A stretch of 64,000 nucleotides of DNA from a virus, in IMG/VR virus record IMGVR_UViG_3300042554_001073. One strand, given 5' to 3'. The translations under genes were made by a program, and so were the position numbers. Below are positions 5,407 to 53,475 of this stretch, in pieces. Under the pieces are notes generated by a model. That model was given only the letters and a program-made list of their open reading frames with translations, ran no database searches and was not told the DNA's origin. Position 1 is the stretch's first letter. The number at the start of each line of letters is the position of its first letter.

Positions 5407-5501
5407 TTACCTGCTCCTGCGTTTGCAAGCAGTGCTTGATGACGACGTTGCTCTTTCTGCTTTTGCTCTTTAATGAGTTGAAGCACATTGAGTTTCTTCA
5501 T
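5403..5501 (-). CDS. 32-aa basic helical peptide
   Basis: MKKLNVLQLIKEQKQKEQRRHQALLANAGAGK; TGATG coupling to upstream ORF. Confidence 0.65.
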   Translation of the reverse strand: MKKLNVLQLIKEQKQKEQRRHQALLANAGAGK

Positions 5502-5638
5502 CACTTATGTCCCTCCTTTACAAAACGAACACCGCGATAGTTTTCGTTGTACTGTTGGGGTTGCTGTGCCATTTGCTGTTGATACTCCAGACGCTTCTGG
5601 GTATCATACTCGATGCCACGATATACTACTTTAGACAT
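5501..5638 (-). CDS. DUF4278-family peptide (45 aa)
   Basis: MSKVVYRGIEYD...NYRGVRF, two YRG motifs; strong RBS AAGGAG; downstream of glnA-type RNA. Confidence 0.85.
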   Translation of the reverse strand: MSKVVYRGIEYDTQKRLEYQQQMAQQPQQYNENYRGVRFVKEGHK

Positions 5639-5671
5639 TAGGTTTTCTCCTTAGTTTTTTAGGTTAAAGAG

Positions 5672-5765
5672 CGTTCCTTCAGTCGGCTTTTGCGTTCGCT
5701 ATTTGCGAATAGCGAATGAACGATCCGTTCCGAGTCGGCTTACTTCCGTCCCATAGGGATGAACG
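5672..5765 (-). ncRNA. Tandem glnA-type (glutamine) riboswitch
   Basis: Two units (5726-5765, 5672-5722), each CGTTC...GAACG P1 plus a P2 hairpin; CGGAAGTA and GAAGGAACG segments as in the cyanobacterial glnA motif; 5' of a DUF4278 gene. Confidence 0.8.
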
Positions 5766-5772
5766 TGAGGTC

Positions 5773-5825
5773 ATTATAGACCTATTCATCCTATATAGCA
5801 ATTTTCTTTTGTAATTTGTGATACA
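5773..5825 (-). promoter_or_regulatory. NtcA-type box (5810-5825) and TATAAT -10 (5773-5778)
   Basis: TGTA-ATTTGTGA-TACA matches GTA-N8-TAC exactly. Confidence 0.65.
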
Positions 5826-5838
5826 ATTTTATACAATC

Positions 5839-6042
5839 TTAATCTTTGTTCTTCCTATCGTACTGATGCCACTTACACCATCCATCAGGTGATATCTTAC
5901 CACTCACTGCTGTACAAGCATTTGGTGGTCTCCACATATTACAATTGGAGCACTTTTCGTTACCTTTTGGTTCGTTAATATAACCCGCAGTCTTCTTTGA
6001 AGACTTTTCTTCTTCGGATAAAAAATCTTTAAAACTTTTCAT
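5839..6042 (-). CDS. HiPIP-like high-potential [4Fe-4S] protein (67 aa)
   Basis: Y21, C31-x2-C34, C43, GWC56 pattern (KCSNC...CTAVSGKISPDGWCKW); N-terminus MKSFKDFLSEE. Confidence 0.8.
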   Translation of the reverse strand: MKSFKDFLSEEEKSSKKTAGYINEPKGNEKCSNCNMWRPPNACTAVSGKISPDGWCKWHQYDRKNKD

Positions 6043-6359
6043 CAGTCTCTTTGTCTCCAATCTTCTGGTTTATCTCCAGTGAAGAAATCAATAATATCAT
6101 CAGCACCATTAAACCCTGTTCTATGATTTGAGGGATCGGGATCTCCCAAGTCAAGAGCATTCATAAATCCATCTAGACTATCTTCAGTCATATCAGGATT
6201 AGCAGCACGGCGTCTTGCTTGTCTTAAAATAGTAGCAGCAGAGCGATTGGACTTTGCCAACTTCTCTGCCCATATCATATCACTTAACTCTACGGATTCG
6301 CCTTTTACAATACGCTCACAGATTGCTTCAAGGCGCAAACGATATTGAGTAGAGAGCAT
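6042..6359 (-). CDS. Conserved cyanophage hypothetical protein
   Basis: MLSTQYRLRLEAICERIVKGESVELSDMIWAEKLAK...W.QRD; GATAAATA late-type promoter upstream. Confidence 0.75.
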   Translation of the reverse strand: MLSTQYRLRLEAICERIVKGESVELSDMIWAEKLAKSNRSAATILRQARRRAANPDMTEDSLDGFMNALDLGDPDPSNHRTGFNGADDIIDFFTGDKPEDWRQRD

Positions 6360-6386
6360 AGTCTTCTCCAGATATAGTGTATTTAT

Positions 6387-6713
6387 CTAACGCTCAATGT
6401 AACTGAGTGTGTGTTCTGTAGCATAAAGTTGTTGAATGATGATATCACAACCAATCTTAGGGTTACAATCACCACAAGTATAAACGTCTACAGCAGCCTT
6501 ACCTTCCTCAGGCCAAGTGTGAATACTAATGTGACTTTCTGAAAGCAAACAGACTACAGTAACTCCTTGTGGTTCAAACTTCTTTGAGATGGTTTGAACC
6601 ACAGTAGCACCACTAGCAACTGCTGCATTCTCTAGTAGGTCCACAAGACAACGCTCGTCGTCCAAAAGGACAAACGAGCATCCATACAGATTAAGAAGAT
6701 AATGCTTTCCCAT
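6387..6713 (-). CDS. speD: S-adenosylmethionine decarboxylase proenzyme
   Basis: G.HY, F.PQGVT...LSESHISIHTWPE.G.AAVDVYTCG (pyruvoyl ESH site). Confidence 0.95.
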   Translation of the reverse strand: MGKHYLLNLYGCSFVLLDDERCLVDLLENAAVASGATVVQTISKKFEPQGVTVVCLLSESHISIHTWPEEGKAAVDVYTCGDCNPKIGCDIIIQQLYATEHTLSYIER

Positions 6714-9936: not shown

Positions 9937-10998
9937 TTAGAGTGCGTTGCCTCGCGGTAGAACTTCCTCTGGGAACACAAAGTTCTCATGAGGTTGGTCT
10001 ACTGGAGCCATCCAAGCACGAAGACCTTCATTCAGAAGAATGTTTTTCGTGTAGAAAGTTTCAAATTCTGGGTCTTCCGCAGCACGAATCTCTTGAGATA
10101 CAAAGTCGTAAGCACGAAGATTAAGAGCAAGTCCAATGATACCGATACTAGAGGTCCATAGACCCATGACGGGAACAAAGAGCATAAAGAAATGAAGCCA
10201 ACGCTTGTTACTAAAAGCAATACCGAAAATCTGTGACCAGTAACGGTTAGCAGTAACCATCGAGTAAGTTTCCTCCTCTTGCGTTGGTTCAAAAGCCTTA
10301 AAGGTATTTGCCTGTTCTCCATCTTCATAGAGAGTATTCTCCACAGTAGCACCGTGAATAGCACATAGCAGAGCACCGCCTAGAATACCTGCTACACCCA
10401 TCATATGAAAGGGGTTGAGCGTCCAATTGTGAAAACCCTGAAGAAACAGAAGGAATCTGAAGATTGCTGCTACACCGAAGGATGGAGCGAAGAACCAACT
10501 GGATTGACCCAACGGATACATCAGGAAGACACTGACAAATACAGCGATGGGACCAGAGAATGCGATTGCGTTATAAGGACGGATTCCGACCAATCTAGCA
10601 ATCTCAAACTGGCGAAGCATGAAACCAATCAGGCTGAAAGCGCCGTGTAGTGCCACAAAAGTCCAGAGTCCCCCAAGTTGGACCCAGCGGACGAAATCTC
10701 CCTGAGCTTCAGGACCCCATAGGAGTAAGAGAGAATGTCCGAGAGCATCAGCAGGAGTAGAAACAGCAGCAGTAAGAAAGTTACACCCCTCCAAATATGA
10801 ACTCGCAATGCCGTGGGTGTACCAACTGGTAGCAAAGGTGGTTCCTGTAAGCCAACCGCCAAGAGCGAGATAAGCTGTAGGGAAAAGGAGAAGGCCAGAC
10901 CAACCGACAAAAACAAACCTATCACGCTTAAGCCAATCATCGAGAACATCAAACCACCCCCTTTGTGTAATTGGTTGTTGTAACGTAGATGAAACCAT
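9937..10998 (-). CDS. psbD: Photosystem II D2 protein
   Basis: [20 protein letters not shown]...[10 protein letters not shown]. Confidence 0.99.
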
Positions 10999-11001
10999 AG
11001 T

Positions 11002-11184
11002 TTACTTTACCTTATCGTAGATTGTAGTGTCACCATAATCGCGGTGAATTTTATATCCAACCACAGCACCTTTGGTATTCATTAGTGCTGGCATAAAAAC
11101 AATAGTGAAGAATACTGCTGGAGCTCCAATAAACAAAACAGCGACGATCACATAATAAGTCAGCAGTTCAGCAATGTCAGGCAT
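11002..11184 (-). CDS. Small single-pass membrane protein between psbA and psbD
   Basis: Hydrophobic YYVIVAVLFIGAPAVFFTIVFMPAL followed by NTKG.VVGYK.H.DYGD. Confidence 0.7.
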   Translation of the reverse strand: MPDIAELLTYYVIVAVLFIGAPAVFFTIVFMPALMNTKGAVVGYKIHRDYGDTTIYDKVK

Positions 11185-11211
11185 AATAAAACTTTACATT
11201 AATGTGGAAAA

Positions 11212-11238
11212 GAAAAGGGGTCCGAAGACCCCGAAGGA
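11212..11238 (-). terminator. Intrinsic terminator after psbA
   Basis: GGGGTC-TTCG-GACCCC hairpin plus T-tract. Confidence 0.75.
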
Positions 11239-11254
11239 TTTAGTTGTAACTAAC

Positions 11255-12334
11255 TCAACCGATTGCTGGAGCAGTGAGAGCAACAGGAGTTGACTCAGCA
11301 GCAGCAAGGTCAAGAGGGAAATTGTGTGCGTTCCTTTCGTGCATTACCTCCATCCCAAGACCAGCACGATTCAGAACATCTGCCCAGGTGTTGAGCACAC
11401 GACCTTGTGAGTCGATGATGGACTGGTTGAAGTTGAAACCGTTGAGGTTGAATGCCATGGTGCTAACACCAAGAGCAGTGAACCAGATGCCAACTACAGG
11501 CCAAGCAGCAAGGAAGAAGTGGAGTGAACGAGAGTTGTTGAACGATGCGTATTGGAAGATAAGACGACCAAAGTAACCGTGAGCAGCAACAATGTTATAA
11601 GTCTCTTCTTCTTGACCGAACTTGTAACCATAATTCTGCGACTCGTTCTCAGTGGTTTCACGAACCAGAGAAGAAGTTACCAGCGAACCGTGCATCGCAC
11701 TAAACAGAGAACCACCGAAGACACCAGCAACACCAAGCATATGGAAGGGGTGCATCAGGATGTTGTGCTCTGCCTGGAACACAAGCATATAGTTAAAAGT
11801 ACCAGAGATACCAAGAGGCATCGCATCAGAGAAAGAACCTTGACCGAAAGGATAGACCAGGAACACTGCGCTAGCAGCAGCAACAGGTGCGCTGTAAGCA
11901 ACGCAGATCCAAGGACGCATACCTAGACGGTAAGAAAGTTCCCACTCACGTCCCATGTAAGCGTAGATACCAATCAGGAAGTGAAACACAACCAATTGGA
12001 AAGGTCCACCATTGTAGAGCCACTCATCCAGAGAAGCAGCTTCCCAGATAGGGTAAAAGTGCAGTCCAATAGCATTGGATGAAGGAATAACAGCACCAGA
12101 GATGATGTTGTTTCCGTACATTAGAGAACCAGCAACTGGTTCACGGATGCCGTCGATGTCCACAGGAGGAGCAGCGACGAAAGCAACAATAAAACAAATG
12201 GTGGCAGCAAGTAGGCAAGGAATCATCAGAGTTCCAAACCAGCCGACATAAAGACGGTTGTTTGTTGATGTCACCCACTGGGCAAACTGTTCCCAAGTAT
12301 TCGATTGTCGTTGTTGTGAAAGTGTAGCAGTCAT
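11255..12334 (-). CDS. psbA: Photosystem II D1 protein (no intron)
   Basis: [30 protein letters not shown]. Confidence 0.99.
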
Positions 12335-12344
12335 TTGTCGTTAA

Positions 12345-12470
12345 AGGGTAAGTAAAAAGTCCAGGGGGAACTGGATGTTACGTTATTCCCCACACCACCC
12401 TCCAGTGTGGGTATGAGAGACGTAATTTATACTCCCCATAGGTCTCGGTTAATGGGAGTCGCAAAGATTA
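12345..12470 (-). ncRNA. PhotoRC-II-like structured psbA leader RNA
   Basis: CTCCCAT...ATGGGGAG, GAGAC/GTCTC, CCCACAC...GTGTGGGG and CCAG...CTGG pairings in the psbA 5' UTR; resembles the cyanophage PhotoRC-II motif from memory. Confidence 0.7.
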
Positions 12471-12501
12471 AAGAACTGTTACATTCCTTAACCTGTTGAT
12501 G

Positions 12502-12535
12502 TATTTATCATAGCATTGTTTTGAAACCCTGTCAA
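12502..12535 (-). promoter_or_regulatory. psbA sigma70 promoter with overlapping late-type promoter
   Basis: TTGACA-17-TATGAT with extended TG; GATAAATA overlapping the -10. Confidence 0.8.
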
Positions 12536-12611
12536 TAGGACCAGTTTACCAACCGACCTTTTTATAAATAAACGACAAAAAATCTAAATACTTAAAACTG
12601 CTTCTCCCTAT

Positions 12612-12803
12612 ATGCCAAGGGAATGGAACACTCCTAAAAGAGAACCTTGGAATGCACCGATACATAATATTCTAAAAGCAATAGACAATCACACTCAAGA
12701 ATACTTCAAGAGTGGTGATATGTGGCATCTACAAAAAGCAGAAAACTTAAGACAATATCTTGACGAACTAAAGACCTGGATACATAAACAAGAAGGAAGA
12801 TGA
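12612..12803 (+). CDS. Hypothetical protein
   Basis: MPREWNTPKREPWN...; TATAAATA late promoter at 12563-12570. Confidence 0.7.
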   Translation: MPREWNTPKREPWNAPIHNILKAIDNHTQEYFKSGDMWHLQKAENLRQYLDELKTWIHKQEGR

Positions 12804-12970
12804 AATCAGCACTTCTCATTGGACTCGTGATTATGAGACTCATAACCAATGAGGGATTTTTTAATGAAAATAGAAGACCACAACCAAAACGACAACCAGC
12901 AGAAGTCATTAGATTCATTAGAAGACCTGCCAAAAGAGGTAGGAAAAAATCGTGGTTCTATTCTGAATAA
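12800..12970 (+). CDS. Basic 56-aa protein with hydrophobic N-terminus
   Basis: ATGA overlap with upstream ORF; MKSALLIGLVIMRLITNEG...RRPAKRGRKK. Confidence 0.55.
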   Translation: MKSALLIGLVIMRLITNEGFFNENRRPQPKRQPAEVIRFIRRPAKRGRKKSWFYSE

Positions 12971-13190
12971 ACTTATCTTTTTTGTCTGTTGTTCCGTAAT
13001 TGGATTTGTTGGTATTAACTTTATTGCTTGTAACTTTATGGTTCCTGGAACCATCAATAGAGCAAATGTAAAAGGAGAATTAAAAAACCCTCCTCCTTTA
13101 GATTGTAAAGAATCCGAAAGAAGAGGATATGAAACTTTACTGACAATCTTAACTACAGTAATTGCGTTAAGAACCAAGTTAGAAGATTAA
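12849..13190 (+). CDS. Putative membrane protein (start uncertain), convergent with the lysin
   Basis: Two hydrophobic segments (LIFFVCCSVIGFVGINFIAC; LLTILTTVIAL). Confidence 0.55.
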   Translation: MRDFLMKIEDHNQNDNQQKSLDSLEDLPKEVGKNRGSILNKLIFFVCCSVIGFVGINFIACNFMVPGTINRANVKGELKNPPPLDCKESERRGYETLLTILTTVIALRTKLED

Positions 13191-13678
13191 GAACTCCAAA
13201 GTTTACCCTCAGCAGTTCTTCTACGAGCAAGTCCTTTCTCTACATTAGTTCCAGGATTGCGATAAAGATATAAAGCATCAGGAACTTTTGACCATTCCTT
13301 ATTTTTTAGGCATTTAGTAATAGTATTAAAGCCAGAACCACCGTAAAAACTGGCACCAAGATTATAAGCGAAGCTGAGCAGAGCGCCTCTTTGTCCATCT
13401 GTCATTTCTCCCCAATAAGGAATTCTCTGAAGTGATGGAAGAAATCTTTGCTCAAGATCAAACATTAATAGTTTGTCAGCATAATCCTGTGTAATCTTTC
13501 TTCCAAGTTTAAATGGTTGACCATTAAAATCTTTAGTGCTACCCCACCCAATAGTGATAGGAAGTCCACCAGTCAATGGGTCAGGATAAGCATTTAAGTG
13601 ACATCCCTCAAACTCCTTAATTAAATCAACACCACATTGAGGGATTTTAGATTGTGGCGTCGATTCTACTTTTTTACG
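13187..13678 (-). CDS. Phage lysozyme (GH24) domain in the -1 frame, lacking its own start codon
   Basis: LIKEFEGCHLNAYPDPLTGGLPITIGWGST, ALLSFAYNLG, GLARRRTAEG; frame opens just after a TGA at 13679-13681. Confidence 0.88.
   Translation of the reverse strand, partial: RKKVESTPQSKIPQCGVDLIKEFEGCHLNAYPDPLTGGLPITIGWGSTKDFNGQPFKLGRKITQDYADKLLMFDLEQRFLPSLQRIPYWGEMTDGQRGALLSFAYNLGASFYGGSGFNTITKCLKNKEWSKVPDALYLYRNPGTNVEKGLARRRTAEGKLWSS
13603..13675 (-). promoter_or_regulatory. Programmed -1 ribosomal frameshift signal (A_AAA_AAG plus H-type pseudoknot)
   Basis: Heptamer 13675-13669; stem 1 13665-13653/13636-13624 (13 bp); stem 2 13645-13637/13611-13603 (9 bp). Confidence 0.8.
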
Positions 13679-14364
13679 TCAAAGATTCTTCCCCAACCAT
13701 CATTGCCTTTGGGGCACCATCTACGTGCTAATTCACTACGTTTATAAACAGCACCTTTACCATTATTTACAGATCCAGTATAACCATCATTCAACGAACC
13801 ATAAGGATCATTGACAACATAATCGCCTGATGGGGTCTTACCAATCACAACTACCATATGCCCACCTGTGGGGTTAGATAGAGGACCGCGATGAAGAATA
13901 CCAATAACAACAGGTCTACCAGCGGCAAGCTCTCTATCAAGATCAGCAAAAGAAAGGCTATAAGAAAAACTGGATTTAATACCGTATGACGCAAGAACCT
14001 TGGTCTGAACCAAGTGATCAGTTGTGTCACCGATTGAGAAAACTTTTTGTACATAGGCGTCATCGCCCTTAGGTCCTTTTAGTGTACCAGGTTTGAAATA
14101 CTCAAGACACATAGCACAAGCAGAAGAGTTACAGGTTCTGTTAGCGTCTCTGTAATTATCTGTCTGTGGATAAAAAGGAACTTGTAAAATACTTGATTGA
14201 GGTTTGTCCTCTTTTGTTCTAAAAATTCTTACCCAATTAGCATCATCCTGTACTAATTCTTGAGCTTTCAGAAGCAAATCTTTTTCAAGTTGCTCTACTG
14301 CCACAACGTGTTTTGGATTTTTTTCGTCGTAGAATTTAAAGAAGTTATGAAGATCTATGAGCAT
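13666..14364 (-). CDS. C39-like cysteine peptidase with N-terminal lysin-associated domain
   Basis: QTDN...TCNSSACAM (Cys), GGHMVVVIG (His), VNDPYG (Asp). Confidence 0.85.
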   Translation of the reverse strand: MLIDLHNFFKFYDEKNPKHVVAVEQLEKDLLLKAQELVQDDANWVRIFRTKEDKPQSSILQVPFYPQTDNYRDANRTCNSSACAMCLEYFKPGTLKGPKGDDAYVQKVFSIGDTTDHLVQTKVLASYGIKSSFSYSLSFADLDRELAAGRPVVIGILHRGPLSNPTGGHMVVVIGKTPSGDYVVNDPYGSLNDGYTGSVNNGKGAVYKRSELARRWCPKGNDGWGRIFDVKK

Positions 14365-14425
14365 TATACTATCCAAACCCTGCACTATATTTATTAAAAA
14401 AAGGAGGGTTTTATCCCTCCTTTAC

Positions 14426-14953
14426 TCATACTGTTACTGTTTCACGAACAGTAGATTTCACATATTCTAGAACATTTTCCGGAGTAGTCTGCTCATAAGG
14501 GTCGGTGGTGGCATTGTCCCGTTGCCCATCTTCAACGAATAGTTTTTCGATGATTCCGTTATCCACGACCGCAGCATAACGCCAAGACCTATCACCGAAA
14601 CCAAGGTTGGACTTATTGACAAGCATTCCCATAGAACGTGTGAAGTAAGCATTGCCATCTGGAATGAGTTGGACATTCTTGATGTTTTGATCTTGTGACC
14701 AAGCATTCATCACAAACCCATCATTAACAGAGATGCAGTAAATAGCGTCGATGCCACTACCAATAAAGTCTTCATATTTCTCTTCGAATCCAGGTAGCTG
14801 ATAGGCACTGCAAGTAGGAGTGAAAGCACCAGGCAGGCTAAAAATGACAACACGCTTCCCATCGAAAAGTTCAGATGATGTACGATTTACAAATTCTCCG
14901 TTCTCACGAAACACAAATTCTACTTGGGGAACTTGATATCCTTCTTTACGCAT
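14426..14953 (-). CDS. Peroxiredoxin (Prx5/type II)
   Basis: LPGAFTPTCS, SVNDGFVM.AW, RSWRYA; start may be 14965. Confidence 0.93.
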   Translation of the reverse strand: MRKEGYQVPQVEFVFRENGEFVNRTSSELFDGKRVVIFSLPGAFTPTCSAYQLPGFEEKYEDFIGSGIDAIYCISVNDGFVMNAWSQDQNIKNVQLIPDGNAYFTRSMGMLVNKSNLGFGDRSWRYAAVVDNGIIEKLFVEDGQRDNATTDPYEQTTPENVLEYVKSTVRETVTV

Positions 14954-15003
14954 AGTAACCTCCATATTAGTATTTTTCCTTTTAAAAATATTGAACATAA
15001 TTA

Positions 15004-15147
15004 TTAATCAAAAACAGCAGTAACTCCCATTACTTTGGCATTTGGATTTCGTGCAAGTGCAGTTTCTCTAGCATCTTTATAATCTCTTGCCTCTACAGTT
15101 TCGTAGAAGACCTTTCCTGCCACATACAACTGCACTTTACACTTCAT
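15004..15147 (-). CDS. Conserved small cyanophage protein (47 aa)
   Basis: MKCKVQLYVAGKVF.E.VEARDY.DARETALARNPNAKV. Confidence 0.7.
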   Translation of the reverse strand: MKCKVQLYVAGKVFYETVEARDYKDARETALARNPNAKVMGVTAVFD

Positions 15148-15148
15148 C

Positions 15149-15256
15149 TCACCAAATACCAGGGATGATTTGTCCAGTCAGGGCATAAGAACCCATTGCG
15201 GCAACGATACCAATCATCGCTGCCCAACCATTAATACGTTCTGCGCGTTCGTTCAT
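15149..15256 (-). CDS. hli: High-light-inducible protein (35 aa)
   Basis: AERINGWAAMIG motif; below ORF-track cutoff. Confidence 0.93.
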   Translation of the reverse strand: MNERAERINGWAAMIGIVAAMGSYALTGQIIPGIW

Positions 15257-15546
15257 TTGTTTTCTCCTTGATAAGGGTGTTTTTGTTTTAGTTCAGGATT
15301 GGGTTGAGAAGGAACCACTGGGTTCCTTGACTTGTTTTTAATGATGATGAAAGCATCATTTTGATAGGTTACAGTTCCAAATGGTTTTGCCCATTTTGGA
15401 TTTGCGTTTGGACTAGTAGCAGTTCCTGTTACTGCCACACCACCAATCTCAACTGATAGTTCATCGTTACGATCCCATCCAAGAGTTTCAAGAGCAATAG
15501 CAAATTGCCCTAACATAGCAACAGATGATGGTTTAATTTCTGTCAC
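15253..15546 (-). CDS. Conserved hypothetical protein
   Basis: EL.VEIGG..V.G......[23 protein letters not shown]. Confidence 0.7.
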
Positions 15547-15836
15547 AGGTTCTCTTCCTGCTCAGTTAGGATCACACAATCGCTAGTCGGATATGCCACA
15601 CAAGTGAGGATAAATCCTTCAGCAACTTGGTCATCATCAAGGAATGATTGCTCACTGTTGTCAACCGTTCCACTAATCAGTTTTCCAGCACAGGAAGAAC
15701 AAGCTCCAGCACGGCAAGAATAAAGCATGTCGAGACCTGCTTCTTCTGCTGCTTCTAGAATGTACTGGTCATCAGCACACTCAATAGTAGTTTCAGTACC
15801 GTTAGGAGATTGAAGAGTAATGTTAAAAGTAGTCAT
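15543..15836 (-). CDS. petF: Plant-type [2Fe-2S] ferredoxin
   Basis: [13 protein letters not shown]...[10 protein letters not shown]. Confidence 0.97.
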
Positions 15837-15922
15837 TAGTAAGTGTCACAGAGTTTTTCAACAGATGCTGCCAACAAAACGAAGAAGGCAACTGATGTTA
15901 TTGTAAACAAGAGTGAAGTCAT
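15836..15922 (-). CDS. 28-aa hydrophobic peptide
   Basis: [28 protein letters not shown]; TAATG coupling to petF. Confidence 0.5.
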
Positions 15923-15931
15923 TGTCAAGTA

Positions 15932-16141
15932 TCAAACTACTCCAAAGAAGAGGTTGCCAGTGAGAGCATAAGAAATAGCCCCAGCAACAATACCGACCAT
16001 AGCCCAGCGTCCATTCATTTTCTCCGCTTTTTCAGCATAGGGTTCGATGCCATAACGCTCAAGGTCTTCCTTGGTCATGTACATAGAGGGTTCTTTGGCA
16101 AACATATTCATTTGCCCGAACTCGTTTTTAGTTACAGTCAT
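15932..16141 (-). CDS. hli: High-light-inducible protein (69 aa)
   Basis: AEKMNGRWAMVG; NEFGQMNMFAKEP N-terminus. Confidence 0.92.
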   Translation of the reverse strand: MTVTKNEFGQMNMFAKEPSMYMTKEDLERYGIEPYAEKAEKMNGRWAMVGIVAGAISYALTGNLFFGVV

Positions 16142-16167
16142 TTCGCTTTATTACGAATTGTTACACA

Positions 16168-16196
16168 ATTATATAGCAAAAAGAAAGGGATGTCAA
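16168..16196 (-). promoter_or_regulatory. Consensus sigma70 early promoter for the hli-petF operon
   Basis: TTGACA-17-TATAAT. Confidence 0.85.
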
Positions 16197-16221
16197 GCAT
16201 CCCTTAAGGTTTTATTTGGAT

Positions 16222-17187
16222 TTACTGACCGATTCGGTTTACGGCAAGTCGTGCTCGATTAAGAATAGATCCACTCAGAGGAACATATCCAAGGTCATCG
16301 GCAATTGATTGTGCCTTTGAACTCAGAGCATAGTTGAGTGCGTTACGAATAGCAGTGGTGTTAGAACCATTACCTGTACGATAAGCAAGAATCCAAGTCA
16401 GAGTTGAGATTGGATATGCATTTGCGCCAGCAGGATTTGGATTCTCGCCAGCAAGGTTTGAATCCAGTTTAATACCATTCAGAGCGGCAGAACCAGCAGC
16501 AGCGGTAGGAAGAACAAACTTACCTGCTTTATTTTGGAGTGCTGCTGCTTGAAGTTTATTTGCTTTCACAAATCCAGTGTTCACATAACCAATTGCCCCA
16601 TTGCTTTGACGGATGCGACCAGCAACACCCTCATTACCCTTAGCACCTACACCAGTAGGCCACTTAACAGACTTAGCAGCACCAGCAGTCCAACCACCAA
16701 ATGCTTTCAATGAGTTAGTGAAGGCATATGTAGTTCCAGAACCATCAGAACGATGAACAACCATCATAGGACCAGCAGCACATCCAACTTGCTTCCAGTT
16801 GTTAATACGACCAGCAAAGATATCAACTGCTTGCTTCTGAGTGAGTTTCAGGTTACATCCAGGTTTGTTATAAGCAATAGCGATTGTACCACCAACCATA
16901 GGAATTTGGACGACACCGCGCTTTACTTTGGCGGAGTCTGCTGCGCTGATTGCTTCGTCACTTGCTCCGAAGTTAACTGTTCCCGCAATGAATTGACGAA
17001 CACCAGCACCAGAACCAACGGACTGATAATTAACCCTATTCCCAGTAGCTCGTGCATAGTCAGCAAACCATCGTTGATAAATTGGGGCAGGGAAAGTAGC
17101 GCCTGCACCATTAATAGTGGGTCCAGCAAGAGCAGCAGCAGGAGCAGCGGCAACTAGACCAACAGCAAAAATATTTTTCAGTTTCAT
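16222..17187 (-). CDS. pstS: Phosphate-binding protein
   Basis: Signal peptide, GAGATFP.PIY, NYQSVGSG.G, HRSDGSGTT, YPI. Confidence 0.97.
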   Translation of the reverse strand: MKLKNIFAVGLVAAAPAAALAGPTINGAGATFPAPIYQRWFADYARATGNRVNYQSVGSGAGVRQFIAGTVNFGASDEAISAADSAKVKRGVVQIPMVGGTIAIAYNKPGCNLKLTQKQAVDIFAGRINNWKQVGCAAGPMMVVHRSDGSGTTYAFTNSLKAFGGWTAGAAKSVKWPTGVGAKGNEGVAGRIRQSNGAIGYVNTGFVKANKLQAAALQNKAGKFVLPTAAAGSAALNGIKLDSNLAGENPNPAGANAYPISTLTWILAYRTGNGSNTTAIRNALNYALSSKAQSIADDLGYVPLSGSILNRARLAVNRIGQ

Positions 17188-17239
17188 AAAAAGTTTTTAG
17201 AAGTGAATTGACTTCGTAATCAATAATAATGGAAGGAAA

Positions 17240-17267
17240 CCTTAAAGTCCACTAAGGTTTGGTTAAG
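17240..17267 (-). promoter_or_regulatory. Pho box (SphR/PhoB-type) upstream of pstS
   Basis: CTTAACC, CTTAGTG, TTTAAGG repeats at 10-11 bp pitch in place of a -35, upstream of a TATTAT -10. Confidence 0.65.
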
Positions 17268-17333
17268 GTTTTGATTACCTAATAAAAAACCACCCCAGAA
17301 AGGGGTGGCTTCACTCAAGTTATGAGTATGTTA

Positions 17334-18803
17334 TCAGAACTTGAACGTCGTCTGGATTACGCCACCCCAGTTAGAGGAGTTGCCAGCAAGACGCTGATTG
17401 TCACTACCGTAGATGATAGCAGGAGTGACGCTGATGTTGTCAGACACTTGGTACTTGTAGAAGATTTCAAGCATCGTGGACTTCTCAAGGTTAGAACCAG
17501 TAGGAGCTTGACCGATAGCAACGCCAGCAGAGTTGCCGTCAACAAACACATCATCCCAAGTCAGACCAGCAAACCAGGATTGACTGTTGGTAGCAGCACT
17601 AGGAGTACCACTCACAGTGTTCCAGCCATAACCACCAGAGATGGAAGGAACCCAACCAGATTCAGTGGGTTGCCAGTATGCGTTGATAGCATAACCGTTA
17701 GAAGTTTGACCAGGAACCAGAGTACCAGAAGCACCATTCAGACCGTTGTAGGTACGAACACGGGTGCCTTCAGTACCATAACGATAACCAAAAGCAGCAC
17801 CCCAGTTATCACCACGATAACCGATTTGAGCCAGAGTGTTGAGAGCACCAGAACGGTCAAACTCACCAGTAGAACTATCGTTACCATTTTGAGCAACGTA
17901 GTTTACACCAGCAACAAGACCTTTCTTACCATACTGGATACCAAAACCAGAACCAGTTGCCTTGTTATACACACCAGGAGCACCTGCTACTTGGAAGAAG
18001 TCAAGAATGTTTGACTTATAAGCAGTAGGAATCCAAGCGATTTCTGTGTTACGAACCAGAGCACCAGCAGTAAGAGTGGTGCTACCGTTGAACATAGGGA
18101 ACTGATAGAACAGACGGTCGATAACTACGTTGTTACCAACTTCGCTGGAAGTATCATCTGCTTTATCCAGTTTGAAGATAGACGAGCTGGAACCGAAAGG
18201 ATTGCTGCTGAAGTTAGCAGAACGAAGACGGGTACGCAGAAGGTCCTTACCAGTGAACGAGGTATCAAGGTTCAGACGCAGATCGTAGTTAAATGCTGTA
18301 CGAGTTACATCGCCACCTTTGGTTTGATAGTTATCAACACCACCGATTACGAAGTTTGCTTCACCACGAAGTTTGGTTGTGGTGGAGAACTGAGTTGCTT
18401 CAAGTTCAGCAACTTGTGCTTCCAGACCATCTACACGACCCTTGAGAACTGCGAGTTCAGCGCCAAATTCATTCAGAAGTGCTTTCAGTTCATCAGTAAC
18501 TTCAGTTACACGATCCAGGCAAGCATTCAGAAGTGCCGCTGCTTCATAACGGGTCATAGCACGACCACCACGGAAGGTGCCGTTAGGATAACCAGCAACG
18601 CAACCATAACGCTCTACGAGGTTAGAGAGTGCCTGATATGCCCAATCAGTAGGTTGAACATCAGAAAATTGAGTGACGCTTGTGACCTGCTCAGAGGAGG
18701 TATATTGGTTGACTGCTGCCATGTTAAGGTCTGCGGCATTCGCAGCAACAGGAGCAACCATACCCAGAGCAACAGGTGCAAGCATCAGTTGTTTGAGTTT
18801 CAT
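17334..18803 (-). CDS. Cyanobacterial Som-type outer-membrane porin (SLH plus beta-barrel)
   Basis: FSDVQPTDWAYQAL..LVERYGC..GYP, TRYEAAALLNACL, QFSTTTKLRGE, terminal TFKF. Confidence 0.95.
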   Translation of the reverse strand: MKLKQLMLAPVALGMVAPVAANAADLNMAAVNQYTSSEQVTSVTQFSDVQPTDWAYQALSNLVERYGCVAGYPNGTFRGGRAMTRYEAAALLNACLDRVTEVTDELKALLNEFGAELAVLKGRVDGLEAQVAELEATQFSTTTKLRGEANFVIGGVDNYQTKGGDVTRTAFNYDLRLNLDTSFTGKDLLRTRLRSANFSSNPFGSSSSIFKLDKADDTSSEVGNNVVIDRLFYQFPMFNGSTTLTAGALVRNTEIAWIPTAYKSNILDFFQVAGAPGVYNKATGSGFGIQYGKKGLVAGVNYVAQNGNDSSTGEFDRSGALNTLAQIGYRGDNWGAAFGYRYGTEGTRVRTYNGLNGASGTLVPGQTSNGYAINAYWQPTESGWVPSISGGYGWNTVSGTPSAATNSQSWFAGLTWDDVFVDGNSAGVAIGQAPTGSNLEKSTMLEIFYKYQVSDNISVTPAIIYGSDNQRLAGNSSNWGGVIQTTFKF

Positions 18804-18897: not shown

Positions 18898-19701
18898 TCA
18901 AGAGTTTTGCTGTTGGGTAAAAGAACTTTCTGTTACTCTTCCAAGATATGGATCATAGTTCATATAATCTTTGATATCAATCTGAGCTCCATTTTGCTGC
19001 CAGAAATTTGATAGGGCATCATAATTTCCTTTATGAAAAGCATCAATGTGTTCAGGATGGATAGATGAACCAAGTTCAATTCTGTAAAGAAGAAGAGGAA
19101 TGCTATAAGTGTTTCCCGAATTGTAAATCAAATCATCTGCTACTGGTCTTGGTTTTACACCATTATCCAGTCTATATTTTTCATCACCTTTGACATGATA
19201 CTTAAGTAGTTTTTTAGCATGGTGTCTAGTGATTAGATAACAAGCGGTAGAAAAATCATTCACAAATCTCTTGTGAAGTTTTACATGAATATCTCCAGTA
19301 CAGATAATGGCAATCTGAACTACATCCCAATCATATGGAATATGTGAGTAGAAATCTTGCCAGGTAAAGTTCCAATACTTTACCAAATCTAAGTTACAAT
19401 CATCCTCCATGATGATAGCATAAGAACTATCAGAGTTTTCATACCAATATTTGATTGCTTTAAGATGTGACGTAATACATCCGATTTCGCCAGATGACAT
19501 CATTTCAGGATAACGACCAGTAATGATATCACTCAAATCATCATCTCTACCATCATAAGCAGAGATTCGTGTATAGTTTTCAATCTCCCAATACTTAAAT
19601 TGAGATTCCATATAATCCCTTCTTTCAATCTGCTCATCAAGATTGATGTAGTATATCGGACCAATATTTTTAAGTTTGAAAGTTGATTTGTTCTTATCCA
19701 T
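18898..19701 (-). CDS. Glycosyltransferase family 25
   Basis: YYINLD...R, EIGC..SH, IMEDD. Confidence 0.85.
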   Translation of the reverse strand: MDKNKSTFKLKNIGPIYYINLDEQIERRDYMESQFKYWEIENYTRISAYDGRDDDLSDIITGRYPEMMSSGEIGCITSHLKAIKYWYENSDSSYAIIMEDDCNLDLVKYWNFTWQDFYSHIPYDWDVVQIAIICTGDIHVKLHKRFVNDFSTACYLITRHHAKKLLKYHVKGDEKYRLDNGVKPRPVADDLIYNSGNTYSIPLLLYRIELGSSIHPEHIDAFHKGNYDALSNFWQQNGAQIDIKDYMNYDPYLGRVTESSFTQQQNS

Positions 19702-51980: not shown

Positions 51981-53438
51981 CTACTTCTTAACCTTATACT
52001 TATTTATGAATTCCTTAATTTGTTTATATCCACTATAAGGTTTAGCGCCATATTGAAGGTTTGTCTTGTCTCCTTTTTCAAATCCAGGAGTTACGTCAAC
52101 AGCATACTTGAAGTATCCACCAGTTCCAACCAAAGTGTTTGGTTTTCCAGGAGTTCTCATTTTCCTTTCAACTCTTTTCTCTTGATATGCTTCTCTGAAG
52201 TTCTTTGGCACATTTCTTGCTTGAGGAATAAAAGCACCATAAGGACCTACTTTTGGATCCTCTTTATCCACAAATCCATCTATATTATTATCTCTTCTAT
52301 TCACGGATTTCTTTACAAGTTTTTTTAAGTTGGTTGATGGAACTTCTGCTTCTGCTTCCATAACATCACGAATCCAAGACTTAAACATATACTCATCTTC
52401 AGTTACACAAATCAGATAGTTTGTTCCTCTACGAATAATCTCACCAACAAGACCTGTATTTAAGTTCTCTACGATATCACCAATTCTAAAGATGTTACCT
52501 TTGATATAATTTTCACGAAGAGTTTCTGCATCATACTTAGGAGCAATCTGCCACAACTCAGCAACTTTCTTCTTTTTCTTTGCACCCATTCCTTGACGAA
52601 CTGCATCAAAGAGTGCTTGAGTGTCACCATCATCCAAAGTTTTTGGTGTTCCTTTACGAAAAGATTCAAAGTCGTCTTCAATCACAGCCTTTCTCATCTT
52701 AGATGCCGACATTCCTTCTACACCTTCAGCATCAGCATCACGAACACCTGCAGAAATTACACGAATCAAATCAAACTCATAAAGGTCACCATTATACTTC
52801 TGTGCTAGATTTTCAAACTCAGATTGTCTATCAGAACCCACAACTATATTTACATTTGCATATCCAGATTCTGATGCGGCAATTAATACATTAAAGATTG
52901 ACTTCATCTCCGCATCATTAATAATGTTCTCTTCAAAATCTGGGAACATCTTTTTCATAAATGAAATCTTCATATCAGGGTCAAGAGGATTTTTCTTGGG
53001 GTCTTGTGTCCTTGAAGGATAAATCTTGAGGTCTCCACCAGTTGCTGCTTTTCTAGCTGCCTTAAGAAGTTTTTCGTGTCCTACTGTCGGTGGATTAAAA
53101 CGACCAAATGCAACAGTTAATGTATCACTATCTGTAGGAACATCAGCAGTTGGAGTTTTTGCTTTTTCTGGTGCTTTTGGTGCAGGTGCTACAGTTGGTT
53201 TTGCTTCTGGTTTTTCTGGTGCTGGTGATTTACCTACTGCACCTTTTGGTCGATCTTTACCACCTTCTACTCTTCCCTTATCATAAAATACTAGTTTTCC
53301 TTTTTCTGTTTTCGCAACAAATTCTCCACGGGCGTCTAACCAACCGCCGTGACCATCACTCTTGAGGTTTAACTTCTTCGCTTGCATAGATGCTTGCGAT
53401 TGTGTTGCCTCTGTTAGAAATTTAGAAAAACTCTTCAT
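51981..53438 (-). CDS. Cytidylyltransferase-like domain protein
   Basis: FGRFNPPTVGHEKL (HxxH-like), KKNPL, VGSDR, SASKMR; N-terminus MKSFSKFLTEA. Confidence 0.88.
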   Translation of the reverse strand: MKSFSKFLTEATQSQASMQAKKLNLKSDGHGGWLDARGEFVAKTEKGKLVFYDKGRVEGGKDRPKGAVGKSPAPEKPEAKPTVAPAPKAPEKAKTPTADVPTDSDTLTVAFGRFNPPTVGHEKLLKAARKAATGGDLKIYPSRTQDPKKNPLDPDMKISFMKKMFPDFEENIINDAEMKSIFNVLIAASESGYANVNIVVGSDRQSEFENLAQKYNGDLYEFDLIRVISAGVRDADAEGVEGMSASKMRKAVIEDDFESFRKGTPKTLDDGDTQALFDAVRQGMGAKKKKKVAELWQIAPKYDAETLRENYIKGNIFRIGDIVENLNTGLVGEIIRRGTNYLICVTEDEYMFKSWIRDVMEAEAEVPSTNLKKLVKKSVNRRDNNIDGFVDKEDPKVGPYGAFIPQARNVPKNFREAYQEKRVERKMRTPGKPNTLVGTGGYFKYAVDVTPGFEKGDKTNLQYGAKPYSGYKQIKEFINKYKVKK

Positions 53439-53475
53439 ATTGATAAATCTTATACTTTTATTTATTGATTATTAA

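Follow-up and report, generated by a model that had tools for sequence, protein, structure and literature searches.

A predicted PioC-type HiPIP of a T4-like cyanophage carries a capsid-targeting-like leader and is probably virion cargo

The DNA analysed here, a stretch of 64,000 nucleotides referred to as the window (IMG/VR virus record IMGVR_UViG_3300042554_001073), derives from a T4-like cyanomyovirus and also encodes thyX, speD, primase, gp41 helicase, UvsX, MazG and a cytidyltransferase. On its minus strand lies a short ORF (P0001; 5839..6042, stop codon included) whose 67-aa product begins MKSFKDFLSEEEK. Its translation contains Y21, C31-x2-C34, C43 and G54-W55-C56, the HiPIP ligand pattern that the initial annotation had reported for this ORF. 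The first ten codons (6013..6042, minus strand) encode MKSFKDFLSE, which resembles a capsid-targeting sequence (CTS); cleavage is predicted after E10, at an L-x-E site. The remainder, residues 11–67 (5842..6012, minus strand), would constitute a mature HiPIP domain of 57 aa, 6.5 kDa and pI 9.0, and aligns with residues 3–50 of PioC. The ORF has neither a twin-arginine motif nor a hydrophobic signal segment, in agreement with the earlier description of it as lacking a Tat or Sec signal, and either kind of signal is thus ruled out by the sequence. A longer version of the ORF, starting from a TTG at 6060, was rejected because the homologues keep the MKSF start and the extension would fall inside the upstream ORF.

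That upstream ORF (6042..6359, minus strand) encodes a 105-aa protein of phrog_507, conserved in 461 cyanophage records. Its TGA and the ATG of the HiPIP gene overlap by 1 base, which is the TGATG arrangement previously noted, and it couples translation of the two genes. The late-type promoter proposed near 6380 was also found: a T4-late-type motif, GATAAATA, occupies 6380..6387 (minus strand), 27 nt ahead of the start codon of the 105-aa gene, and NTAAATA is kept at –27/–28 of this gene in most related loci, with differing flanks. No terminator was found on the coding strand between speD, the upstream gene and the HiPIP gene. A second late-type motif, ATAAATA (53459..53465, minus strand), lies at –27 from the ATG of the cytidyltransferase, which also bears a leader (see below), such that both leader-bearing units of the window have NTAAATA at –27. 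Since an NTAAATA-type motif occurs at –40 to –18 of 13 of the 81 minus-strand ORFs in the window (about 16%), its presence is weak evidence when taken alone; the arrangement is consistent with late transcription of the HiPIP operon.

The neighbours of the HiPIP gene are metabolic and small genes (thyX, speD and a glutamine-riboswitch operon), not structural genes. The riboswitch (RF01739, 35.4 bits) spans 5668–5724 and is accompanied by a weaker second aptamer at 5726–5765 (minus strand). Both aptamers are upstream of a 45-aa DUF4278 ORF (5501–5638) that sits just downstream of the HiPIP gene, and there is a sigma-70-like promoter at 5801–5773, by the riboswitch region. About 130 bases of this region (5501–5765) match a part of S-PM2 that has no annotation, with 92.5% identity.

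We then considered the identity of the protein. As a single sequence it scored 21.5 bits (E=2.9e-4) against the Pfam HIPIP model (PF01355), narrowly missing the cut-off of 22, and two of its homologues, P0029 and P0033, clear this cut-off with 24.7 and 23.6 bits, respectively. A profile built from 17 close homologues matched PioC (PDB 6xyv) with E=3.2e-14 over residues 12–59, with the same C-x2-C-x8-C-x12-C spacing. The same profile also matched three further solved HiPIPs, including that of R. marinus (2.2e-4) and 1isu (1.6e-3). In the alignment of these 17 homologues the four cysteines, Y21, G54 and W55 are invariant; the cysteines and Y21 are likewise invariant in 80 diverse homologues, in which G54-W55 is invariant or nearly so. 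Such conservation argues that the ligand pattern did not arise by chance. Indeed, the aromatic residues that shield the cluster of true HiPIPs are kept in the phage family (Y21, W37/F and G-W-C). An exhaustive HMMER search recovered 2389 relatives at E<=1e-3. In PHROGs there is no family for the phage HiPIP, the sole match being of 11 leader residues to phrog_36347.

The predicted structure led to the same assignment. With only the 17 close homologues as input, AlphaFold (AF2) gave an unusable model (pLDDT 48), whereas the 80-sequence alignment raised pLDDT to 85.7. In the latter model residues 11–60 exceed a pLDDT of 89, and residues 1–10 (pLDDT 55) are detached from the domain. When this model was compared with the PDB using Foldseek, ranks 1–18 were all HiPIPs, the best being PioC (target-normalised TM 0.79, rmsd 1.2 A, 42% identity over 48 columns). 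The designation as a HiPIP made in the initial annotation is therefore backed by sequence, by profile and by predicted fold, and on these grounds we assign the 67-aa protein to the HiPIP family, as a minimal HiPIP of the PioC type. Its four cysteines would be expected to hold a [4Fe-4S] cluster.

The cellular relatives, which are typically 85–130 aa long, have twin-arginine signals directly ahead of the domain; PioC itself has a Tat signal and functions in the periplasm. The match to PioC, the confidence profile of the predicted fold and the boundary of the cellular domain all indicate that the phage HiPIP domain begins exactly where the leader ends. Judged by sequence, then, the leader takes the place of the Tat signal of cellular HiPIPs. 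In two distant homologues the protein has a start of the MKTFKQVLNE or MKKFKQFIIEE type, and the HiPIP domain follows 50–110 residues further on. Orthologues of the phage protein are present on at least 90 IMG/VR viral contigs. Among the matching phage records S-SRM01 is the only sequenced isolate with the HiPIP gene, S-CREM2 and S-SM1 being absent there. Its orthologue is 84% identical to the protein of the window; the S-SRM01 paper makes no mention of iron-sulfur proteins or proteomics.

Among the distant homologues, many short ones lack both a Tat signal and a capsid-targeting leader, so the domain evidently can work as a plain cytoplasmic protein. This raises the alternative that the phage product is a cytoplasmic auxiliary metabolic HiPIP, never packaged, that acts as an electron shuttle or redox buffer and whose N-terminus is a helix or a translation-favourable start. 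The metabolic neighbours (thyX, speD and the glutamine-riboswitch operon) would fit such a role, as would the short signal-less homologues, and ferredoxin and plastocyanin are examples of electron carriers already known from cyanophages. However, in the reducing cytoplasm a high-potential carrier would find few evident partners, and the late-type promoter would be left unexplained.

The leader of the phage HiPIP, MKSFKDFLSE, is close to the CTS of the T4 internal proteins IPII and IPIII (MKTYQEFIAE) and satisfies the CTS pattern M-K-(T/S)-(Y/F)-x-(E/D/Q)-F-(I/L)-x-E. The consensus for the HiPIP family is MKSFQEFLSE, and one group of orthologues has MKSYQEFIAE, which is identical to the T4 CTS at 9 of 10 positions. 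In T4, residues 4 and 7 of the CTS serve in targeting and residues 8 and 10 in processing (reviewed in PMC9026906); all four mapped positions are conserved in the HiPIP leader. We examined this conservation in 52 distinct DNA variants, drawn from the IMG/VR orthologue contigs, the window and S-SRM01. M1, K2 and E10–E12 are invariant and F7 is kept in 51 of the 52, while position 4 takes F, Y or L. Only L or I occurs at position 8, through five different codons. Synonymous turnover at this position, with the class of residue retained, indicates that selection acts on the leader peptide.

It could still be argued that the likeness to the T4 CTS is a coincidence, or reflects a shared history of 5' recombination, and has nothing to do with targeting; the leader comprises just ten residues, and many proteins of AT-rich phages begin with MK. 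The turnover at position 8 speaks against this, and so does the distribution of the leader on other proteins. In a scan of phage genomes, a single degenerate DNA pattern derived from the cyanophage leader had exactly three sites in T4 (ipII, ipIII and gp61.1) and none in the reversed control. Both ipII and ipIII are annotated as internal virion proteins. Gene 61.1 (18966–19130) encodes a 54-aa hypothetical protein that starts MKTFKEFIKE, and it may be an unrecognised CTS-bearing peptide. The TWY leader pattern gave 26 matches in 12 phage records, nearly all of them real ORF starts, as against 0 in the reversed controls.

Most cyanomyovirus genomes have the leader at the starts of 1–4 unrelated ORFs, again with 0 matches in reversed controls. 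S-SRM01 has four carriers, namely the HiPIP, a 102-aa protein, a cytidyltransferase and a 447-aa low-complexity protein. Five IMG/VR genomes yielded 14 matches, 13 at real ORF starts and 1 opening a 10-codon frame (controls 0), with up to four carriers in each genome. These carriers include small basic proteins of 60–283 aa that are like the T4 internal proteins, and some are adjacent, as are ipII and ipIII. Further leader ORFs of unassigned function occur in the IMG/VR genomes and in S-CRM01 (139045), and are candidate cyanophage internal proteins. Among them are a 131-aa protein behind a perfect TATAAATA, a 216-aa protein and the small basic proteins of 60–283 aa, some of which are in tandem.

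Within the window, a six-frame scan identified one other leader-bearing ORF, the T4-GC190 'cytidyltransferase' (P0168; 51981..53438, minus strand), a protein of 485 aa that starts MKSFSKFLTE. A strict regular expression that allows only D, E or Q at position 6 misses it, and the leader scan used a relaxed one. We also observed a module of about 35 residues, ..K.LGL...G.GG[WY].D..G...., right after the leader in several packaged enzymes. Its carriers are the window cytidyltransferase (residues about 11–55 of P0168; window 53300–53410, minus strand), the S-SM1 GC190 protein, and the kinase (gp14) and Cas9-like protein (gp12) of S-CREM2. This module may serve for docking in addition to the leader; it is absent from the HiPIP.

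Published virion proteomes provide an independent view of the leader-bearing proteins. Sullivan et al (PMC3037559) detected T4-GC190 in S-SM1 virions, and the supplement to that paper places its ORF at 148256–149419. The leader match in S-SM1 (MKKFSAFLNE) coincides exactly with the position of this ORF. The virion proteome of S-CREM2 comprises 52 proteins (PMC10665884). A six-frame scan of this genome found four leader ORFs: gp6 (SAM hydrolase), gp13, gp14 (APH-like kinase) and gp154 (cytidylyltransferase), with the leaders MKDFDSFLEE, (V)KRFDAFLTE and MKNFSSFLTE on the SAM hydrolase, the kinase and the cytidylyltransferase, respectively. All four are among the 52 virion-detected proteins, an overlap with a hypergeometric P of about 0.003 given that 52 of 221 annotated features were detected. 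Both gp154 and the S-SM1 T4-GC190 protein are orthologues of the window cytidyltransferase. In addition, gp136, gp15 and gp12 of S-CREM2 (OR473000), which are also virion-detected, have degenerate leaders. The first two read MQTFSMFFSE (ORF136, 107301) and MNFSEFNE (ORF15, 13331); in the Cas9-like protein (ORF12, 10313) an internal ..LRFASFMAE.. lies near the annotated start, which may be mis-called. Neither the S-CREM2 nor the S-SM1 proteome paper (PMC10665884, PMC3037559) remarks on a shared N-terminus.

Taken together, the presence of the leader on unrelated proteins, the retention of the T4 positions and the detection of all four S-CREM2 carriers in virions uphold the initial annotation's description of a T4-style capsid-targeting leader, and support the view that it behaves as a modular CTS of the T4 type. 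These observations make coincidence, or mere 5' recombination, a very improbable explanation of the likeness. They also weigh against a HiPIP that stays in the cytoplasm, since that alternative leaves unexplained both the occurrence of the same decapeptide on unrelated, virion-found proteins and the retention of the positions that serve targeting and processing in T4; we consider it unlikely. A protease of the gp21 family (Peptidase_S77) is encoded by S-SRM01, by a complete HiPIP-bearing IMG/VR genome (G003) and by S-CREM2; gp21 and the head-gene module were not found in the 64-kb window.

Distant phage homologues offer a further view of the domain. In these it is fused to GH19+LysM, InPase, Phage_Mu_F, NUDIX+DUF2213 or Acb1. 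The fusion proteins (P0035, P0053, P0057, P0065, P0083, P0042, P0070 and P0148) are metagenomic, and the HiPIP domain is N-terminal or internal within large proteins. MuF, InPase and lysozyme-type domains occur in the polyvalent proteins of phages, for which packaging and injection have been proposed (Iyer et al, 2017; PMC5512222); the list of polyvalent proteins given there contains no HiPIP or Fe-S module. A HiPIP domain is also fused to a GC190-type nucleotidyltransferase (P0046) that is homologous to the window cytidyltransferase P0168 (E=1e-21). The existence of this fusion in other phages points to a functional connection between the two proteins of the window that bear the leader. In the stretch 10001–17997 of an IMG/VR contig, the P0046-type protein is encoded beside ORFs of 1608 aa (amidoligase-like region) and 603 aa (transglycosylase match). 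Its setting, a large viral contig with very large ORFs around, gave no functional clue.

Recurrence of the domain in large multi-domain phage proteins, beside lysozyme, MuF, InPase and Acb1 domains, could also be taken to mean that the packaged protein is a non-redox metal knot, binding either an Fe-S cluster or Zn. It would then serve as a structural or adaptor module or, like T4 IPI*, which is an inhibitor of a host defence protein, would act against host defences. The mature HiPIP is indeed small and basic, as the T4 internal proteins are. However, the aromatics that shield the cluster (Y21, W37/F and G-W-C) are kept along with the four cysteines, and identity to PioC reaches 42%, both of which speak against a role of this kind. 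We regard a non-redox knot as quite improbable, more so than a cytoplasmic carrier.

We favour instead a model in which the HiPIP is cargo of the virion. With the export signal replaced by a head-loading tag of the T4 type, the protein probably travels in the virion and is delivered together with the DNA. In the specific form of this model, which we think somewhat likelier to be right than wrong, a prefolded HiPIP already loaded with its cluster is sent by the CTS to the prohead core, trimmed after E10 and released into the next host. The HiPIP gene would be transcribed with the upstream gene from the late-type promoter, and its product would gain its cluster and fold in the cytoplasm, as Tat substrates do. 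MKSFKDFLSE would then bring the protein into the scaffolding core of the prohead, where a gp21-type prohead protease would cut after L-S-E10 to leave a basic holoprotein of 57 residues and 6.5 kDa. The trimmed protein would remain in the head with the DNA and enter the next host at infection, in the manner of the T4 internal proteins. Two features make such a mechanism appealing: folding and cofactor binding of Tat substrates also take place in the cytoplasm, and HiPIP clusters are relatively stable in air. It would call for the cluster to survive within a DNA-filled capsid in oxic water. Packaging, cleavage after Glu10, occupancy of the cluster, ejection and a role inside the host cell are all things that we infer. 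As to that role, we would guess at one-electron redox chemistry, or at a redox-stable module working alongside enzymes injected with it. The role put forward in the initial annotation, in which the injected protein would tap photosynthetic electron flow or sense redox state on entry, is speculative.

A broader possibility, which we put forward tentatively and with a good deal of doubt, is that the Kyanoviridae have a general system of CTS-addressed protein injection, whose cargo is legible from ten codons. That cargo would include the air-stable [4Fe-4S] HiPIP, a nucleotidyltransferase, a SAM hydrolase, a kinase and a Cas9-like nuclease, and the HiPIP would act as a preloaded redox agent before phage gene expression, maybe together with GC190. 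Phage internal proteins deliver a first strike against the defences of the host; those known so far are protein inhibitors and enzymes. If our model is correct, a cofactor-loaded Fe-S electron carrier would represent a new class of injected protein, and the swap of signals, from periplasmic export to capsid import, would be a clear one. The leader would also provide a predictor, from sequence alone, of the proteins that abundant aquatic cyanophages deliver into their hosts, and would explain the presence of SAM hydrolase, kinase and cytidylyltransferase in cyanophage virion proteomes.

HiPIPs and the T4 CTS are individually well known. In the literature searched we came across no phage HiPIP, no cyanophage CTS and no Fe-S protein described as internal virion cargo. 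New here are the second leader gene of the window, the T4 positive control, the four-of-four overlap in S-CREM2 and the link through the GC190 fusion.

Among known systems, the closest counterpart of the domain is PioC of Rhodopseudomonas palustris TIE-1 (PDB 6xyv), a minimal HiPIP of 54 residues, to which the predicted mature phage protein is about equal in size. The two share the cysteine spacing and an aromatic shield of Tyr and G-W-C; unlike PioC, the phage HiPIP has a CTS-like decapeptide and an extra basic C-terminal tail. The counterpart of the leader is found on T4 IPII and IPIII. In both cases an N-terminal decapeptide ending in (L/I)-x-E occurs on several unrelated, often small basic proteins per genome, the genes lie outside the head-gene cluster, and the lineage has a protease of the gp21 family. 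The T4 internal proteins are orphan basic proteins, whereas the cyanophage cargo has a metalloprotein fold of cellular origin, and its packaging and cleavage are predicted. The virion enzymes of S-CREM2 and S-SM1 have the same type of leader as the HiPIP but are enzymes of other families. Finally, distant homologues of the domain are embedded in multi-domain phage proteins whose partner domains recall those of the polyvalent proteins (PMC5512222), whereas the HiPIP of the window stands alone behind its CTS.
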